The position numbers and the translations under genes were made by a program. A DNA stretch of 64,000 nucleotides from a virus (lineage: Duplodnaviria > Heunggongvirae > Uroviricota > Caudoviricetes). Below are positions 3,001 through 18,139 of the stretch, piece after piece (position 1 is the first letter of the stretch; every line of letters begins with the position of its first letter). The notes under the pieces are model-generated. The model made no database searches. It was not told the origin of the DNA and saw only the letters and a list, made by a program, of their open reading frames with translations. The stretch lies in IMG/VR virus record IMGVR_UViG_2675903278_000002. One strand, written 5' to 3'.

Positions 3001-3437
3001 TTGGTGGTTTAGGCAACTCTCAGTTCGGGTTCTACATGATTAACAAGTCACGAACCGCGAACGGCACGGATGCGAACGCATACCTCCAGAATGACGGTAC
3101 TTGGGTTTGCGGCGGTAATGGCAGCTTTAATGACGTTTATATCCGTTCTGACCGCCGTAGTAAGCGCAATATTCGCAAGATTGACCGGGCGCTCGACAAG
3201 CTGGAGCAGATCGAAGGTGTTCTCTACGAGATTCAGGTCTGTGGCCGTTATGAGCAGTCTGGTGGCCTCATCGCTCAGGATGTCCAGAATGTTCAACCTG
3301 AACTGGTAACGGTCGACCATAACGATCAGTCAGGAGAGCCTCGTCTGCGTCTTAACTACAACGGCGTTATCGGCATGTTGGTTGAGGCTGTCAAAGAGTT
3401 GCGCGAGGAAGTGCGCGAACTGAAGGCAAAAATGTAA
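27..3437 (+). CDS. Phage tail fiber protein with fiber repeats and C-terminal intramolecular chaperone (peptidase S74-like) domain; reading frame is open upstream to the window edge, so probably 5' partial
   Basis: 1136 aa ORF; duplicated NAATATKLQTARTIGGV(S/A)FDG(T/S)ANINLPGVNT motif typical of phage tail fiber repeats; C-terminal SDRRSKRNI ... LVEAVKELREEVRELKAKM resembles the autoproteolytic chaperone domain of endosialidase and L-shaped tail fibers; no stop codon between position 3 and the ATG at 27. Confidence 0.8.
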   Translation: MPQASSIVYIALIGGAGYNVGSPHQAGISELVLRAGNGNPKGITGALWKRTAVGLTNFAWINTSGDTYDIYVEIGNYATSVNIHWDCTANATVSIYTSPTYSASKPSSVTDGVVYTMYSTHQKPTPLDIGALPTTGGTVSGPLSVTGGLTGSLNGNASTATKLQTARTIGGVSFDGTANINLPGVNTTGNQNTTGNAATATKLQTARTINGVKFDGSADITLTPANLDVYSKSEIDNKKGMRKYTFSAPANAVSGKWYPIVFRRSGGNTDELASRVVITTYSSAGGYAMNNCEFNGFVMPGGWSDRGSYAAGFFSIYSTAERAIHSIISGVKDDDLCSVFYVEARAFPIKIFAEEGLNVIVPTADYAVGQTTYKWGATDPLSESTNAQIILDFKNGRGYYCSHPFISSLSGNAATATKLQTARTIGGVAFDGSANINLPGVNTAGNQNTTGNAATATKLQTARNINGVKFDGSGDININTLVSRGRVTALSGSTQGTAGIQMYEAYNNSYPTMYGNVLHMKGASASGEGEMLVGWSGTDGAHAPVYVRSRRDTSTANWSGWAQIYTTAHKPTAKDVGAAQAFSASYSTGAGNWTTAEFIAWLKERGAFEVPYWMMKGSWSYADNKIITDTGVGNICLAGAVIEVLGTEGAMTIRVTTPTTTTGGGIACAQFTYINHGSAYAPAWRRDYNTTLKPTAADVGALPSGGGTLSGALTLSMAAPSVQLRGQGTDTRQYIMAYRTDGATSWYVGKANNGSDNAMFWNYTGSNGIELAADGNVRINAKGKQFTFANNGNLGLVASLDQSSVPQGTYHQVALNTGTVGGKSYLRKFRGGNTDTIWHETVQGGFLRWATGNADEQEELSISTGYGVRARGEITSLSANGLRVAYGNYGFFIRNDGGTTYFLLTASGDKFGSWNALRPMYINNASGAVTMGNGLSLAGGLNVTSGNIRIPTSSTSWIDMRNNAALSNSSAVATSSASAIIRQEHADRHYFVGGLGNSQFGFYMINKSRTANGTDANAYLQNDGTWVCGGNGSFNDVYIRSDRRSKRNIRKIDRALDKLEQIEGVLYEIQVCGRYEQSGGLIAQDVQNVQPELVTVDHNDQSGEPRLRLNYNGVIGMLVEAVKELREEVRELKAKM
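481..700 (+). repeat. Copy 1 of an approx 210 bp intragenic duplication in the tail fiber gene (second copy at 1260..1470)
   Basis: Near-identical nucleotide and peptide segments encoding GNA(S/A)TATKLQTARTIGGV.FDG.ANINLPGVNT.GNQNTTGNAATATKLQTAR.INGVKFDGS. Confidence 0.7.
1260..1470 (+). repeat. Copy 2 of the tail fiber intragenic duplication
   Basis: Direct comparison with 481..700 in the sequence. Confidence 0.7.
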
Positions 3438-3503
3438 TCAAGGTGAATGGTGAGGGGCCACCCTCACCAATTCAGGATATTCACATCAAAAAGGAGATTA
3501 GAT

Positions 3504-4286
3504 GTGCCAATTGTCGGTGTTCCCGGTTGGATTGGGTCTTCGGCTGTCAGTGTGACAGGCCAGAGATGGATGAGTGCGGCTCGAACGGCGGTGCAACTGC
3601 CAGCGGCTGGTTCAATGTCTCAAATGGCCGGGCGATCTAAAGAAGTTCAGTACAGCATCGGTGCGAATCATAACTACAACAAAGACACACTGATCAACTA
3701 TTTAAAATCCCAGGGGGCGACGCCAGTCGTTGTTACCATTACAGGGGATCTGGTGTCGTCCAGTAGCGGCGTGCCATGTTTAGATTTCCCGAGTTCACTT
3801 ACCAACTCTTATATCAGCCTTGTAATCAACGCAGGTGTGACTGTCTATGGACGCGGTGGCAATGGTGGTAGTAACGCTGCCGGTGCTGCTGGTGGTAACG
3901 CAATTAATAATGGCATCGGTACACGCTTGCGTATTACGAATAATGGTGCAATCGCTGGAGGTGGTGGCGGCGGTGGCGGTGGTAACAGGGGTAAACTAAT
4001 ATTTGGTGGTGGCGGTGGTCGCCCATTCGGTGCTGGTGGGTCTTCCTCTCATATGAGTTCCGGTGCAACTGCTGGTACTATTTCCGCTCCTGGTAAAGGA
4101 TCTGTTGGTGAGGGGTCTCTTAGTGCATATACAGGCGGTTCGGGTGGTAATGTCGGTGCTGCTGGAGGAAGATGTAATACTCAAGGTAACGGTACAGAAT
4201 ATAACGGCGGGGCAGCTGGTAAAGCCGTAACTGGCAACGCGCCTACATGGACTAAAGCTGGGGCAATTTACGGCGCTCATGTGTAA
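3504..4286 (+). CDS. Glycine-rich hypothetical protein, possibly tail-fiber associated; proposed GTG start
   Basis: ORF 3447..4286; AAGGAG at 3491..3496 sits 7 nt upstream of GTG 3504; long poly-Gly tracts (GGGGGGGGGN, GGGGG); lies between tail fiber and lysis genes. Confidence 0.45.
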   Translation: MPIVGVPGWIGSSAVSVTGQRWMSAARTAVQLPAAGSMSQMAGRSKEVQYSIGANHNYNKDTLINYLKSQGATPVVVTITGDLVSSSSGVPCLDFPSSLTNSYISLVINAGVTVYGRGGNGGSNAAGAAGGNAINNGIGTRLRITNNGAIAGGGGGGGGGNRGKLIFGGGGGRPFGAGGSSSHMSSGATAGTISAPGKGSVGEGSLSAYTGGSGGNVGAAGGRCNTQGNGTEYNGGAAGKAVTGNAPTWTKAGAIYGAHV

Positions 4287-14190: not shown

Positions 14191-14673
14191 ATGGCGGTAG
14201 TTGTGAAAGCTGATTTGTCAAAAATCCCTTCTATTTCAGGAAATAACGGTTATTCACTTCGTTGTGAGGAAGTAAAGATAAACGGTGAGTCGGCATATTG
14301 CAGCTATTCCGTTTGCCAGCACACCATTCTTGCCTTCAAAGAAAACCGTCTTCCTCGAACTTCTTTCCAGTCGTGCGCAACCGCTATTAAAGCAGGCAAA
14401 TGCAAGGCGTTAAAAATGATGGTTGAAGAGATTCGTAAAGGAGAATCTCTGTATTTCGAAGATATGACCGCGCTCATTAAGGAGGTTGAAGAACGGAATA
14501 AACAAGCCAGAACTATAAAACGAAAACGTGACAGTGTAACGATTAATAGCATGGTTAAGAAGAGCACCACATCACAAACAGCGATCACTGACGTGTATGC
14601 GGCGTTGCTTGAAGAAACAACAAAAGAAACACATGAGCAAATCGATCAACATATGGAGGCAAAACAACAATGA
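14191..14673 (+). CDS. Hypothetical protein
   Basis: 160 aa ORF; stop overlaps the ligase start. Confidence 0.5.
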   Translation: MAVVVKADLSKIPSISGNNGYSLRCEEVKINGESAYCSYSVCQHTILAFKENRLPRTSFQSCATAIKAGKCKALKMMVEEIRKGESLYFEDMTALIKEVEERNKQARTIKRKRDSVTINSMVKKSTTSQTAITDVYAALLEETTKETHEQIDQHMEAKQQ

Positions 14674-15992
14674 AAAAGTTGATCGCACTTAAGCATAAGC
14701 TGGACGAAATGAAAGCTATGGGAACCAATGCAAAAAAAGAGGCATTGGCCAACATGGATGACTTCGAGCAAAGCATGGTTTCATTGATGCTCAACCCTTT
14801 CATCCGTTTTGGGGTAAAGAAATACAAAGTGGCAGAGCCGCTTAGTGAGTCCGTCCCAAGTGACGAAAAAGCCATTGATATACTGAATAAGCTGGCCTCT
14901 CGCGAGCTGACGGGGAACGCAGCAATAGCTGCTGTTGAGTCTATCGTGGCGTCAATGTGCGCCGATGGGCAGGACGTGTTCCGTCGTTTCCTCTTAAAAG
15001 ATCCGAAAGCTGGCGTTGGGATTAGCCTATGCAACAAGGTTTTTGAAAATCCCATTCCGAAATTTGAGGTGCAGCTGGCGTCACCGTATAAAGAAAAAGG
15101 CGACAAATACCCCTTCAAGCCAAATCCTAAAGCCAAATGGCCGATGATTGGCAGCCTTAAGCTCGATGGTTTGCGAGTAATTTGTGAGGTTATTGTTGAC
15201 GAGGAAGAGGTGAACTTCCTTTCTCGTACTGGTAATCCAATCACGTCTCTCGATCACCTAAAGCCAGCCATGCTCGAATTAGGCAAACTTTCAGGCCACA
15301 AACACATCTTCTTCGATGGTGAAGGAACAGCCGGTTCATTTAACCAGTCCGTATCTGCATTGCGCAAAAAGAACGTGCAGGCAATTGGCGCTATTTATCA
15401 TGTTTTCGACTTCTTCCTACCGGAATGGCGGGCACAGGCTAAATCCAAAGAGTATGCAAAGACAGGTATGAAGCTGAAAGAGCGCCTGGCTATTCTCGTG
15501 GCGTTGTTCAAAAACGATCGCAGTGAAGACTACGCGCAAGACATTCACCTACATCCGTTCTACATCATCCATAGCCACGAAGACTTCATCGAACGCTTCA
15601 TGAAACGCCTGGACGATAACGAAGAAGGGGAGATGGGCAAAGATCCGAACTCTGTTTACGAGTTTAAACGTACCCGCAGCTGGTGGAAGTTAAAAGACGA
15701 AGATTCAGAAGATGGTGAAATTATCGACTTTGAGCCGGGCGACCCGGACTCTGGTTTTGCCAACACACTTGGAAAAATTGTTATTCGTCTTGAAAACGGC
15801 GTCATCGTTCGTGCGAGCGGCATTAAGCATAAATATCTGGACGAGATCTGGAACAACAAAGAGAAGTACCGTGGTCGTATTGTCGAGGTTCATTGTCACG
15901 AGAAAACACCGGACGGCAGCTTACGCCACCCACGACTGAAATGGCCGCGTTGCTTACGCGATACAGAAGATCGAATCGGAGATAAAGAATGA
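14670..15992 (+). CDS. ATP-dependent DNA ligase
   Basis: Adenylation motif KxDG in GSLKLDGLRV; 440 aa. Confidence 0.8.
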   Translation: MKKLIALKHKLDEMKAMGTNAKKEALANMDDFEQSMVSLMLNPFIRFGVKKYKVAEPLSESVPSDEKAIDILNKLASRELTGNAAIAAVESIVASMCADGQDVFRRFLLKDPKAGVGISLCNKVFENPIPKFEVQLASPYKEKGDKYPFKPNPKAKWPMIGSLKLDGLRVICEVIVDEEEVNFLSRTGNPITSLDHLKPAMLELGKLSGHKHIFFDGEGTAGSFNQSVSALRKKNVQAIGAIYHVFDFFLPEWRAQAKSKEYAKTGMKLKERLAILVALFKNDRSEDYAQDIHLHPFYIIHSHEDFIERFMKRLDDNEEGEMGKDPNSVYEFKRTRSWWKLKDEDSEDGEIIDFEPGDPDSGFANTLGKIVIRLENGVIVRASGIKHKYLDEIWNNKEKYRGRIVEVHCHEKTPDGSLRHPRLKWPRCLRDTEDRIGDKE

Positions 15993-16168
15993 TGCTCGGC
16001 TGGATGATTGCATTTTTAGCGGTTGGTTTTTTAATCGGTATTGTGGTGATGTCCAGTTGCATCAATGACTACATTAAAAGCGGTGTTATAGAACGACGCG
16101 GTCGTATTTATCGCATTGTAGAAATAACCCGCACAGTGAAGGAGATTAAGGATGATCGTATTAAGTAA
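15989..16168 (+). CDS. Small membrane protein (59 aa), translationally coupled; not in supplied ORF track (below 60 aa)
   Basis: ATGA overlap with ligase stop; hydrophobic N-terminus MMLGWMIAFLAVGFLIGIVVM then RRGRIYRIVEITRTVKEIK. Confidence 0.35.
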   Translation: MMLGWMIAFLAVGFLIGIVVMSSCINDYIKSGVIERRGRIYRIVEITRTVKEIKDDRIK

Positions 16169-16367
16169 GCGGGAGAAGGAAACGCTTCATGAAATCAGTA
16201 AGTGGCCGGAGTTCCCTGAGTACTGGAAGCCTAAAACGCGAGCTAAGTTAGAGCGTTTAGGGTTGGTTGCAAACGTTTCTGAAACGTGGTGCTCGGCCAA
16301 CTACCAGTTAACTGATAAAGGGAAAGTATTGCTACAGCAATTAGTAGAATCAGGAGTGTTAAAATGA
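16152..16367 (+). CDS. Hypothetical protein
   Basis: 71 aa ORF; overlaps neighbours at both ends. Confidence 0.4.
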   Translation: MIVLSKREKETLHEISKWPEFPEYWKPKTRAKLERLGLVANVSETWCSANYQLTDKGKVLLQQLVESGVLK

Positions 16368-16516
16368 TTCCATACATCTCATTAGCTTTTATGGGTGGCT
16401 TCCTTATCGGCTTCGGCATCTGTCGTGATTTAATTAAGCAGGAACTTAAAACCAAAACACTGTGCATCGGAAAGCGTGTGTATCGGGTAGTTCATGAAAC
16501 AAAGGTTAGAAAATGA
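16364..16516 (+). CDS. Small membrane protein (50 aa), apparent paralog of 15989..16168
   Basis: ATGA overlap at both ends; hydrophobic N-terminus then GKRVYRVVHETKVRK, resembling RRGRIYRIVEITRTVK of the upstream small protein. Confidence 0.3.
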   Translation: MIPYISLAFMGGFLIGFGICRDLIKQELKTKTLCIGKRVYRVVHETKVRK

Positions 16517-16803
16517 GCAATTTAACTTCTTGGGACTGGTGGTTGGCCACCTATTTCTTAGCGGCCGGAGTCGCATTCGCCTTTTACGTAGGTCAGTTAG
16601 TCGTAAAACTGCTGCTGATTAAATTTGCCAGTCATAAACGTATCGATGATGGTCTGTGGCGTCTTGGCACCCTGGTGGAAACTCGCTACGGGCAACTTAA
16701 GGAGAACGAAACCATTACTATCCAAGCGAAACGATTCACTGCCACCATCACAAGAACACCTAGTCGTAGAGTGGCCTTGATCAAAAAAGTTACAACCGAA
16801 TAA
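16513..16803 (+). CDS. Hypothetical small membrane protein
   Basis: 96 aa; N-terminal transmembrane segment WDWWLATYFLAAGVAFAFYVGQLVV. Confidence 0.4.
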   Translation: MSNLTSWDWWLATYFLAAGVAFAFYVGQLVVKLLLIKFASHKRIDDGLWRLGTLVETRYGQLKENETITIQAKRFTATITRTPSRRVALIKKVTTE

Positions 16804-17579
16804 AAATACAATGATAAGTATTTACTTACTTATCTTTTATGTATAAGATGACTTTGTTTTCGTTGAGACGCGACTGTTTGAACTTAAATACAAGTGCAAA
16901 CGAAGAAGTCTATCTGGCAGTAGCCTAATAAGCCAAACACCAGCGAGGTCAGTTTCCAGCCTCGTTACCGAAATGGGACACACTGAGCGAGTGTGATTGC
17001 AGAACGCAGGAGGGAACATGAGTGTTCCCTCCGATGAAGTAACAGAATGGGCGGTCGGTATATTTTCAACTCAATATGACTCCCGGATTCTTAGCCACTG
17101 ACCGCCCATCCTGTTACGTCATTTTGTTCAATTATGTCGTTTATACTGGGTTAAAAAGCGGCGGCGTAGCCCGGCTGGTATGGTTAGCCAGCACACAACG
17201 TTGAGGCCATTACATTTTTATCAATTCTAAGGTTCTATTCACAGAGATACCGGCGAGCGTTGATATGTAACATGTTGGGCAAACATTCAATCGGAGTAGT
17301 GGCCTCAACGTTGTGAAGACAGGATTGTTGTGTAGGTTTAACCACTGTTGCCATTGGTGCCTGTTTTCACAACAAATGATTCCATACATCACATTGTATA
17401 AATTACAAAGTAGGCGCTGTCCTCAAAAACATCATCTACTTAAAGATTTTGTCTTCTATTGAGCGAAGTCGAAAACGTCTGGCACTAACGAAAAGTGCAA
17501 GTAGCGGTGCGTTTCCTGGCAGAAACTAACACCGCCGCGATTGGCACTGTTGAGTAATAAATACTGTCAGTGCTGAATT

Positions 17580-17654
17580 GATGGTGTAGCTCAGCGGTAG
17601 AGCAGTTGGCTGTTAACCAACTGGTCGGTGGTTCGAATCCACCCACCATCGCCA
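17580..17654 (+). tRNA. tRNA-Asn (anticodon GTT)
   Basis: Manual fold: 7 bp acceptor stem GATGGTG/CACCATC, D-arm TAGCTCAGCGGTAGAGC, anticodon loop CTGTTAA, T-loop GGTGGTTCGAATCCACC, 3' GCCA. Confidence 0.75.
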
Positions 17655-17656
17655 AT

Positions 17657-17732
17657 GCCGGTTTAGCTCAGTTGGTAGAGCGCCTGCCTTGTAAGCAGGA
17701 TGTCAGCGGTTCGATCCCGTTAACCGGCACCA
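17657..17732 (+). tRNA. tRNA-Thr (anticodon TGT)
   Basis: Manual fold: acceptor GCCGGTT/AACCGGC, D-arm TAGCTCAGTTGGTAGAGC, anticodon stem CCTGC/GCAGG with loop CTTGTAA, T-loop GGTTCGATCC, 3' ACCA. Confidence 0.75.
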
Positions 17733-18052
17733 ACACAACAGGTAAGAGCATTGGGCGAATCGGCGATACTGACCCACAAGCCCGTAAATCGATAGAGTCA
17801 GACCAGTGCTCTTACCGTTGTGAGGAAGTGCAGCTCTTTGAAGCAACCAGAAGATAAGCATCTGGCTTCACAACACAACGATAAGATCATTACGGTTAAT
17901 CGTCGTTCATGTGCACAATGACTGGTCGAAAGGTAGTGATCTTACCGTTGTGATGAATGCACAGGCTGATGTGCCGCAACTACAGTAGTGCGCGCTTTGC
18001 GGGGCTTGCTACAACCCTGTGTCGGAGTTCAGCACCGACCATCACAATAGCT

Positions 18053-18139
18053 GGAGAGTAGGGAGCATGGTGCTCAAGCGGTCTTGAAATCCGTCCCATT
18101 GTGCAAACGATGATGGTTCGATTCCATTACTCTCCGCCA
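18053..18139 (+). tRNA. Class II tRNA with long variable arm, most likely tRNA-Ser (anticodon TGA); anticodon stem imperfect
   Basis: Acceptor GGAGAGT/ACTCTCC, T-loop GGTTCGATTCC, 3' GCCA, long variable region; anticodon loop CTTGAAA only with a mismatched closing pair. Confidence 0.55.

Follow-up and report, generated by a model that had tools for sequence, protein, structure and literature searches.

Four short, translationally chained genes behind the ligase of an SSU5-like phage-plasmid: a putative accessory inner-membrane module with an embedded repeated 15-mer and a neighbouring candidate tmRNA-like RNA

In the virus record IMGVR_UViG_2675903278_000002 of IMG/VR, four short open reading frames (ORF1 to ORF4) follow directly on an ATP-dependent DNA ligase gene; the whole stretch of 64,000 nucleotides that was analysed is here called the window. 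On balance we favour the interpretation that these four genes are the translationally chained tail of a replication operon and constitute a dispensable accessory module of the inner membrane which serves during replicative growth, and what the module does there is proposed below in tentative terms. The four genes are ordinary in the sense that small conserved accessory genes without an assigned function typify phage genomes. What is added here is a description that comprises three predicted bitopic proteins and a modelled minimal winged helix, a probable duplication, an apparent order of acquisition, natural knock-outs and silence in a lysogen. Two neighbouring elements, a repeated 15-mer embedded in the start of ORF3 and a candidate structured RNA resembling transfer-messenger RNA (tmRNA) downstream of ORF4, outweigh the four genes in importance.

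Over positions 14600-17100 the window is 98% identical to the records of Escherichia phage Cyrano and CMS-2020a, and 75-80% identical to Salmonella phage SSU5 and Klebsiella phage pJN2-26. The 815-nt cluster matches 751 plasmids from Klebsiella, Escherichia, Enterobacter, Salmonella (pHCM2), Yersinia pestis (pMT1), Citrobacter and Cronobacter, nearly all of them non-mobilisable replicons of about 100-120 kb. Because of the similarity to Cyrano and SSU5 together with these plasmid matches, the window is identified as part of an SSU5-like phage-plasmid. In annotated relatives a helicase gene, a primase gene and two unknown genes precede the ligase; the small genes come next and, across a gap of about 0.8 kb, one to four tRNA genes with variable cargo behind them. 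The ligase, with a ratio of non-synonymous to synonymous substitutions (dN/dS) of 0.03-0.04, is thus the final large gene of a helicase-primase-ligase replication module. Any role of the cluster in phage exclusion or in plasmid biology would have practical reach, since phage-plasmids of the SSU5 type commonly occur in clinical E. coli, Klebsiella, Salmonella Typhi (pHCM2) and Y. pestis (pMT1).

An earlier model-made interpretation of the same DNA without database searches, referred to here as the sequence-only reading, had described ORFs of 59, 71, 50 and 96 amino acids (aa) after the ligase gene, and all four are found on the plus strand where it placed them (Table 1). Its remark that two of them are too small for the ORF track also applies, two of the four being shorter than 60 aa. 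It had named conservation of the frames in related genomes as a check, and all four are open in at least 12 SSU5-like relatives with a complete module, at 59-80% amino-acid identity, the ligases of these relatives being 84-94% identical. Synonymous sites are near saturation in the comparisons of the cluster, and dN/dS was 0.09-0.23 for ORF1, about 0.08 where measurable for ORF2, 0.09-0.38 for ORF3 and 0.12-0.13 for ORF4. Each product matches a PHROG family from residue 1 to the protein end and over essentially the whole profile, namely phrog_4381 (ORF1, E 2e-38), PHROG 4054 (ORF2, E 2e-45), phrog_6302 (ORF3, E 8e-37) and phrog_4507 (ORF4, E 9e-59). The comparative data show the four ORFs to be real genes under purifying selection.

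A possibility to be weighed against this is that the frames are conserved as DNA sites or as RNA structure and are not translated. Some features would suit it, in that ORF3 opens with a repeated 15-nt DNA motif whose conservation exceeds what coding requires and the adjoining non-coding region is more conserved than the ORFs themselves. Outside the 15-mer, however, evolution is coding-like, with near-saturated synonymous sites and dN/dS of 0.08-0.38 over the four genes. Furthermore, ORF1 to ORF3 have constant length among the closest relatives (clade A, defined below), the sole indel seen in ORF4 is an in-frame gap of four codons, the overlaps and the Shine-Dalgarno spacing are kept, and only the plus-strand frames stay open. 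Taken together these observations make an untranslated cluster extremely improbable. Open frames on the minus strand vary from genome to genome and are not conserved; the antisense 74-aa ORF at 16243-16467 on the minus strand was rejected as a gene on this ground, being absent as a conserved frame from the relatives.

GenBank, RefSeq and PHROGs already list the genes as hypothetical proteins, and for ORF1 there is a curated name that refers to its position. In RefSeq, plasmid pAPSLC-111K carries an aplA gene of 58 aa directly after the ligase, which is 100% identical to window positions 15993-16150, and the NCBI name of the product, "after-plasmid-ligase protein AplA", is purely positional. 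No AplA model is present in NCBIfam release 20 and a literature search returned nothing on AplA, while ORF3 is often left unannotated in RefSeq records. The four PHROG families, all without assigned function, and the name AplA are accordingly sequence bins and a label of position, none of which carries a function. ORF1, ORF3 and ORF4 had no significant family match in Pfam, NCBIfam or PADLOC. All homologs lie on SSU5-like replicons of Enterobacterales of about 100-115 kb. Profile searches of a 5.8-billion-protein set and an exhaustive HMMER scan returned no relatives outside such replicons except three remote ORF4-like clusters, and these also sit in the same module.

The genes are tightly chained. 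The sequence-only reading saw successive ATGA overlaps throughout, which is correct for the junctions ligase/ORF1, ORF2/ORF3 and ORF3/ORF4, but ORF1 and ORF2 overlap by 17 nt, with the ORF2 ATG at 16152 and the ORF1 TAA at 16166-16168. In order, the overlaps in the window are 4 nt (or 1 nt from the second ATG of ORF1), 17, 4 and 4 nt. Because the first codon of ORF1 is CTG in SSU5, pHCM2, pMT1 and the Cronobacter and Enterobacter relatives, translation probably starts at the second ATG, 15992, giving a product of 58 aa and a 1-nt TGATG overlap with the ligase stop; the RefSeq annotation uses this start. In SSU5-like relatives carrying all four genes the junctions stay ATGA or TGATG, and in clade B the overlap is 8 nt. 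Such conserved start/stop overlaps are what translational coupling predicts at the level of sequence. A Shine-Dalgarno GGAG or AAGG lies 7 nt before each start, and 10 nt before ATG 15992 of ORF1. A scan for promoters and terminators found no promoter-like site within 15989-16803 and no convincing terminator there, only a weak hairpin within ORF4. As each gene has its own ribosome-binding site, the starts and stops overlap and no internal promoter or terminator candidate was found, ORF1 to ORF4 would be made together with the ligase; this would take place during lytic replication and not in the quiescent plasmid state.

The start region of ORF1 is itself part of a repeat. On either side of ORF1 lies a copy of an imperfect direct repeat of 16 nt (GGAGATAAAGAATGAT and GGAGATTAAGGATGAT; 14 of 16 positions identical), and these two copies supply the Shine-Dalgarno and start contexts of ORF1 and ORF2, respectively. 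Within the ORF1 start region GGAGATAAAGA is invariant across nine diverse loci. In plasmids such as pAVS0223-B, ORF1 is precisely absent between the 16-nt repeats, and in pAVS0223-B the junction reads ...GGAGATAAAGAATGATCG..., which identifies this junction, as judged by its sequence, as the product of a deletion between the copies at 15978 and 16141-16156.

Expression of the homologous genes is available from a study of Cyrano in strain LF82, which re-analysed RNA sequencing (RNA-seq) data (PMC9928086, S1 Table). In lysogens grown overnight in lysogeny broth (LB), CYRAN_36-39, the homologs of the ligase and ORF2-4, have 4.99-7.6 normalised counts, where 4.99 equals zero, and they are not in the list of expressed morons, while toxin-antitoxin genes and CYRAN_43 are clearly expressed (PMC9928086). 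In the samples B6 and MB1, CYRAN_36-39 reach a log2(fpkm+5), fpkm being fragments per kilobase per million, of about 5-6 and drop at MB6, the sample in which capsid and tail genes are highest (PMC9928086). This pattern fits an early or replicative class of expression, and the low level in lysogens argues against a function in the quiescent plasmid state.

The latter point bears on the suggestion of the sequence-only reading, superinfection exclusion or host takeover, and in particular on classical exclusion, in which a resident prophage-plasmid would make proteins that block the injection of DNA by an incoming phage. Small membrane proteins that are dispensable and patchily distributed would suit such a function, as would the allelic diversity that clade B displays at the locus. 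However, the Cyrano LB lysogens show ORF2-4 and the ligase at the limit of detection, in one strain and one condition (PMC9928086). The genes lie within a replication operon of lytic type with no promoter of their own detected, their predicted topology leaves a mere 2-9 residues outside the membrane, and a PADLOC match is lacking. Exclusion by the resident, repressed element is for these reasons a highly unlikely explanation.

The products of ORF1, ORF3 and ORF4 are predicted to be single-pass (bitopic) inner-membrane proteins. Their Kyte-Doolittle maxima over 17 residues are 2.65, 1.88 and 2.15, respectively, and none has a lysine or arginine before the helix, while the 15-18 residues that follow it include three to six. 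With basic residues restricted to the far side of the helix, the positive-inside rule predicts a topology with the N-terminus out and the C-terminus in, leaving only the 2-9 residues mentioned above outside the membrane. In ORF1 the N-terminal transmembrane (TM) helix has the invariant pair G13xxxG17 and is followed by a basic C-terminal tail with RRGRIYRIVEIT; in ORF3 the invariant pair of the TM helix is G12xxxG16, and the basic tail includes IGKRVYRVVHET. The sequence-only reading counted four membrane proteins. Three are predicted here and not four, because ORF2 is without a hydrophobic segment and is modelled as a winged helix.

It had also regarded the 59- and 50-aa products as apparent paralogs, citing a shared R(I/V)YR(I/V)VE(I/T)T(R/K) motif. 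The similarity itself is real, with RIYRIVEITR in ORF1 and RVYRVVHETK in ORF3, but ORF3 does not fit the pattern as it was written, and the consensus that the two tails have in common is G-(R/K)-R-(I/V/L)-Y-R-(I/V)-(V/I). The paralogy, too, is probably correct. Comparison of the ORF1 family with the ORF3 family by hhalign gave 84.5% (P 6.9e-6) over 45 ungapped columns, and shuffling of the whole sequences gave p <1e-4. A bridging homolog strengthens the case: clade B has a single 56-aa gene (MMHNVIPYILLGLIGGVLGSAYFIVDMLKQDLKTGTVRFGRRVYRVIEVREFKRNG) between the ligase and the ORF4-like gene, whose product aligns to the ORF3 family at 98.5% and to the ORF1 family at 67.9% in hhalign, and whose tail matches that of ORF1 (p 0.0009). 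By its alignment the clade B protein is the ortholog of ORF3. ORF4, which has a similar-looking KRFTATITRT segment, was considered as a third paralog and rejected, since hhalign gave 0.3% and 3.5% and tail shuffles p 0.79 and 0.89.

Proteins of this size with a single TM helix, GxxxG and charged C-termini resemble small pore-forming peptides, and one may ask whether they are holin/antiholin-like or type-I-toxin-like peptides that permeabilise the inner membrane and set the timing of lysis. ORF4 does have a weak match to the holin family phrog_2359 (E 0.019), but this match is not significant and involves the hydrophobic TM region only. Moreover, the genes are in the replication module with a ligase and tRNA genes, and not an endolysin, as neighbours; the promoter scan revealed no antisense RNA gene in the arrangement of a type-I toxin-antitoxin system; and purifying selection extends along the whole tails and is not confined to the TM helix. 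A lytic or toxic function thus seems very improbable.

ORF2 is of a different kind. Its hydropathy maximum of 0.43 over 17 residues falls short of that of a TM helix, and its structural model is a three-helix bundle with a beta-hairpin wing, which superimposes on solved winged helix-turn-helix (wHTH) domains. Modelling thus shows ORF2 as a soluble winged-helix DNA-binding fold. It passes no Pfam or NCBIfam threshold, the best Pfam match being HTH_45 (E 0.18, 12.3 bits against a cutoff of 25.5), and in PADLOC it has weak matches of wHTH type to the C-terminal domains of Csa3/CARF proteins (E 0.0015-0.03). Membership of the MarR family proper was considered and rejected, as no MarR model matched: MarR-type proteins have dimerisation helices and about 140 aa, whereas ORF2 is a bare wHTH of 71 residues without them. 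Comparison of ORF2 with ORF4 revealed no relation.

No other gene of the cluster is retained as widely as ORF4. When 1.84 billion representatives were scanned exhaustively with its profile in HMMER, 18 clusters only were returned, and the remote homologs sit at this same place whether or not the ligase and ORF1-3 are there. In many RefSeq and GenBank records (e.g. SSU5_048, P0001-P0039) ORF4 homologs carry the label 'C-type natriuretic protein', which has no supporting domain in Pfam or NCBIfam and looks like a propagated mis-annotation.

The distribution of the genes suggests how the cluster was assembled. In clade A, with ligases at least 84% identical to that of the window, the order is ligase, ORF1, ORF2, ORF3, ORF4; in clade B, with a 74% identical ligase, the ligase is followed by the ORF3-like and ORF4-like genes only; and in clade C, without a ligase, an ORF4-like gene comes directly after a homolog of the 160-aa protein that is encoded at 14191-14673 in the window. 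Since clade B has the ORF3-like and ORF4-like genes (ORF3x, ORF4x) only and clade C a single ORF4-like gene (ORF4y), ORF4 looks like the core of the cluster, ORF3 and ORF4 like an older pair, and ORF1 and ORF2 like a later insertion between the ligase and ORF3. ORF1/AplA would then have arisen as a duplicate of the ORF3 type.

The genes are also patchily lost. Among 5,426 complete E. coli genomes, ORF2-4 were detected in 210 and ORF1 in 134, always plasmid-borne, so that ORF1 was undetected in about a third of the copies; these counts rest on the sensitivity of megablast. In other relatives the ligase, ORF1 and ORF2 are lost, or ORF3 and ORF4 are broken by an invertase gene or by frameshifts, as in some Klebsiella and Enterobacter plasmids. 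The DNA invertase is inserted into ORF3 in one Enterobacter plasmid.

The locus also exchanges alleles. Three clade B loci (L023, L026 and L027; positions 3341-3790) have ligases that are 99% identical with a proportion of synonymous differences (pS) of 0.11, whereas pS is 0.53 in the ORF3-like gene and 0.84 in the ORF4-like alleles, which on these backbones share 43% amino-acid identity. Since synonymous divergence is so much higher in the ORF3- and ORF4-like genes than in the ligase, the data indicate that this cassette was replaced by recombination and not that its evolution was locally accelerated.

These observations are important for a further alternative, that the tails of ORF1, ORF3 and ORF4 together with ORF2 tether the replicating DNA or the replisome to the inner membrane. 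In Bacillus phage phi29 the membrane proteins p16.7 and p1 organise phage DNA replication, and they share with the present proteins that they are small, TM-anchored, encoded with replication genes and equipped with basic cytoplasmic parts. In keeping with such a role, all clades have the genes chained to the helicase-primase-ligase module at its end, the tails, which carry a net positive charge, by prediction face the cytoplasm, a DNA-binding fold is encoded within the cluster, and expression follows the early replication genes and not the structural genes. A replisome factor should, however, co-evolve with the replisome, and ORF4x is 43% identical where the ligases are 99% identical. ORF1, ORF2 and ORF3 are each missing from otherwise complete relatives. 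There is furthermore no homology to the phi29 proteins, nor any sequence or profile similarity of ORF1, ORF3 or ORF4 to p16.7 or to any DNA-binding domain; the tails here have 25-60 residues; and the genes show repeated loss as well as allele swaps that are independent of the replication genes. We consider membrane anchoring of replication unlikely.

The patchy loss and the cassette-like exchange of alleles instead favour a role of conflict type over a core function in replication. In the mechanism that we propose, a small complex in the inner membrane would form by association of the TM helices of ORF1, ORF3 and ORF4, with a helix-packing motif of GxxxG type in ORF1 and ORF3. All three would contribute short basic cytoplasmic tails that end in a beta-hairpin-like R-x-Y-R-V/I-V segment. 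The complex may act on a partner that is embedded in the membrane or cytoplasmic. The likeliest class of function would be to block the entry of a second phage's DNA, or to modulate a membrane protein of the host. The Imm and Sp proteins of phage T4 are small membrane proteins which act early in infection to exclude a second one. They resemble the cluster proteins in their comparable size, single hydrophobic anchor, dispensability and expression as early genes rather than from a repressed prophage, but differ in that there is no sequence similarity and that the cluster proteins are predicted to have essentially no periplasmic domain.

Several points weigh against a dispensable inner-membrane module of this kind acting in replicative growth. 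No similarity to a known exclusion, defence, holin or toxin family was found in Pfam, PHROG, NCBIfam or PADLOC, where the PADLOC models gave no match for ORF1, ORF3 or ORF4. Topology and oligomerisation are deduced from rules of thumb, and the AlphaFold2 model of ORF4, with a helix at 6-59 and strands at 67-71 and 76-80, is of low confidence (predicted local distance difference test, pLDDT, 68). Segment-wise shuffles of ORF1 and ORF3 gave modest values only (p 0.02 for the tails and p 0.06 for the TM segments), for which reason the paralogy is held to be probable and not proven. Allele swapping shows the exchangeability of the locus only and not its role. It must also be noted that the RNA-seq values are low counts for very short genes in one strain. 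In these data ORF2-4 read somewhat higher than the ligase, and because of this excess a separate internal promoter for ORF2-4 could exist in place of strict co-transcription.

Table 1. Features of the window in and around the small-gene cluster (positions in the window; amino acids, aa)
Feature	Position	Strand	Remarks
ATP-dependent DNA ligase, 440 aa	14670..15992	+	ORF list; NCBIfam ligase models; annotated as DNA ligase in Cyrano, SSU5 and pJN2-26
Direct repeat, copy 1: GGAGATAAAGAATGAT	15978..15993	+	ORF1 Shine-Dalgarno and start context
ORF1/AplA, 59 aa (58 aa from 15992)	15989..16168	+	phrog_4381; family alignment; RefSeq aplA on identical sequence
Direct repeat, copy 2: GGAGATTAAGGATGAT	16141..16156	+	ORF2 Shine-Dalgarno and start
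ORF2, 71 aa, modelled as soluble stand-alone winged helix-turn-helix	16152..16367	+	overlaps ORF1 3' end by 17 nt
ORF3, 50 aa	16364..16516	+	phrog_6302; alignment; ATGA overlaps with ORF2 and ORF4
15-mer: ATGATTCCATACATC	16364..16378	+	encodes ORF3 start MIPYI; embedded in ORF2/ORF3 junction
ORF4, 96 aa	16513..16803	+	phrog_4507; predicted N-terminal TM helix, then amphipathic helix, beta-hairpin and basic tail
Candidate tmRNA-like structured RNA	16815-17320		unannotated, between ORF4 and the tRNA genes; compared with tmRNA over 16851-17320
Tag frame of candidate RNA	16896-16931		
Hairpins of candidate RNA	~16913-16999		
Long inverted repeats of candidate RNA	17034-17122 and 17194-17315		
15-mer copy	17376-17390	+	about 200 nt before tRNA-Asn
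15-mer palindrome	20885-20915		12-nt arms, 7-nt spacer; about 100 nt upstream of integrase gene (21015-22118)
15-mer copy	26932-26946	-	inside polymerase gene

The 15-mer ATGATTCCATACATC at the start of ORF3 is identical in all loci, although pS is about 0.5 elsewhere, and forms the longest invariant run of the coding region. The window contains five copies where 0.1 would be expected (Table 1), and an extended consensus reads AAATGATTCCATACATC[T/A]CAT. The copy upstream of the tRNA genes is kept in relatives that are without ORF3, and the palindrome in front of the integrase gene recurs in Cyrano and in the two clade C loci that retain the integrase gene. Because it is invariant, repeated and kept in relatives without ORF3, the 15-mer is probably a site for protein binding or recombination upon which the N-terminus of ORF3 is superimposed. 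It could be either an operator for a dispersed-site repressor, operators of which type exist in P1, or an arm of the core site of the integrase; in both cases it would probably belong to the regulatory or recombination circuitry of SSU5-like elements. A literature search on the 12-nt core of the motif returned nothing. As a separate observation, ORF1 homologs (P0136 and P0137) are reported on a chromosome-sized contig of 4.65 Mb from Citrobacter sp. R56, in which an SSU5-like element may be integrated into the chromosome; this possible integration bears on the role of the integrase and its palindromic site.

The region following ORF4 is exceptionally well conserved. Over 0.3-0.5 kb its conservation surpasses that of the genes, the longest invariant runs reaching 31 nt, and it appears to encode a conserved structured RNA for which tmRNA is the closest likeness. 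Its tag frame, GCA AAC GAA GAA GTC TAT CTG GCA GTA GCC TAA TAA, would specify ANEEVYLAVA followed by two stops and is preceded by a promoter-like GTATTTAC...TGTATAAGAT. It is much like the tag template of E. coli tmRNA (SsrA), ANDENYALAA. Further similarities to tmRNA are an alanine resume codon, the absence of a start codon from the conserved frame and the position of the stops in a hairpin loop. In the RNAalifold structure an invariant helix has the stop codons in its loop, and the two hairpins that follow have compensatory changes.

The pattern AN(D/E)xx(Y/F)LAVA plus stop is kept with synonymous changes in five unrelated phage groups, and upstream indels of 1-2 nt break any longer frame. 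The tag frame is found in all SSU5-like clades, in a lambdoid prophage between a Q-like antiterminator and a holin gene, in FelixO1 within the tRNA cluster and in Klebsiella phage Carvaje. Matches to the segment were obtained in 406 phage records and in 258 complete E. coli genomes, where it is almost always unannotated. The chromosomal ssrA gene was considered as the source of the E. coli matches and rejected: the places returned are unannotated chromosomal ones, and the one that was inspected is a lambdoid prophage and not ssrA.

Standard tools do not recognise the element. ARAGORN made no tmRNA call on it, and the Rfam tmRNA models align to the tag region, in some phages also to a T-arm, at 14-22 bits compared to gathering scores of 47-84. 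A strict T-arm search found neither a T-arm nor a tRNA-like domain in the SSU5-like copies. In the lambdoid and Carvaje copies a T-arm is enclosed by a long stem, and downstream in the FelixO1 copy there is a tRNA-like element with ACCA and an acceptor stem carrying G3:U70. In these other phages the T-arm or tRNA-like element thus lies downstream of the tag, an order that is neither the standard one nor the known permuted one. A survey of tmRNA from 2014 lists phage ssrA only in mycobacteriophages, Bacillus phage G and DS6A (PMC4131195), and our literature search returned nothing on tmRNA in phage-plasmids. A conserved tmRNA-like RNA which escapes standard tmRNA finders and has matches in hundreds of enterobacterial phage records deserves an investigation of its own.

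Two direct copies of the repeated site, 15-22 nt in length, at 16364 and 17376 bracket ORF3, ORF4 and the tmRNA-like RNA, its palindromic form lies just before the integrase gene, and one may speculate that the bracketed elements form one accessory unit. The site would then bind a repressor or a recombinase that controls or mobilises the cassette, and the membrane proteins and the tag RNA would act in one pathway, for example by redirecting ribosome rescue or proteolysis during replicative growth. We regard this as a long shot.

Downstream of these elements, genes for tRNA-Asn, tRNA-Thr and tRNA-Ser begin at 17580, in agreement with the statement of the sequence-only reading that the cluster lies upstream of a tRNA island. 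The island (17580-18139), compared with locus L001, 5984-6231, and locus L019, 4090-4613, has Asn and Thr, then a gap of about 320 nt, and Ser, and it differs between near-identical relatives. Cyrano has Asn, Thr and Ser back to back, SSU5 has Asn only, and pAPSLC-111K has Asn, Tyr, Thr and Ser. In Cyrano, the hypothetical protein CYRAN_40 (locus L001, 6107-6319, minus strand), which was reported as an expressed moron, lies antisense over tRNA-Thr and tRNA-Ser, and its high read count may simply stem from tRNA transcripts.

The region past the island is a hot spot for cargo in the relatives (locus L005, 3449 onward; L013, 4033 onward; L006, 2844-3749; L012, 2476-3033). Its contents include AbiH abortive-infection genes in Enterobacter and Klebsiella plasmids and a regulator of caf1 (F1 capsule) in Y. 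pestis pMT1.

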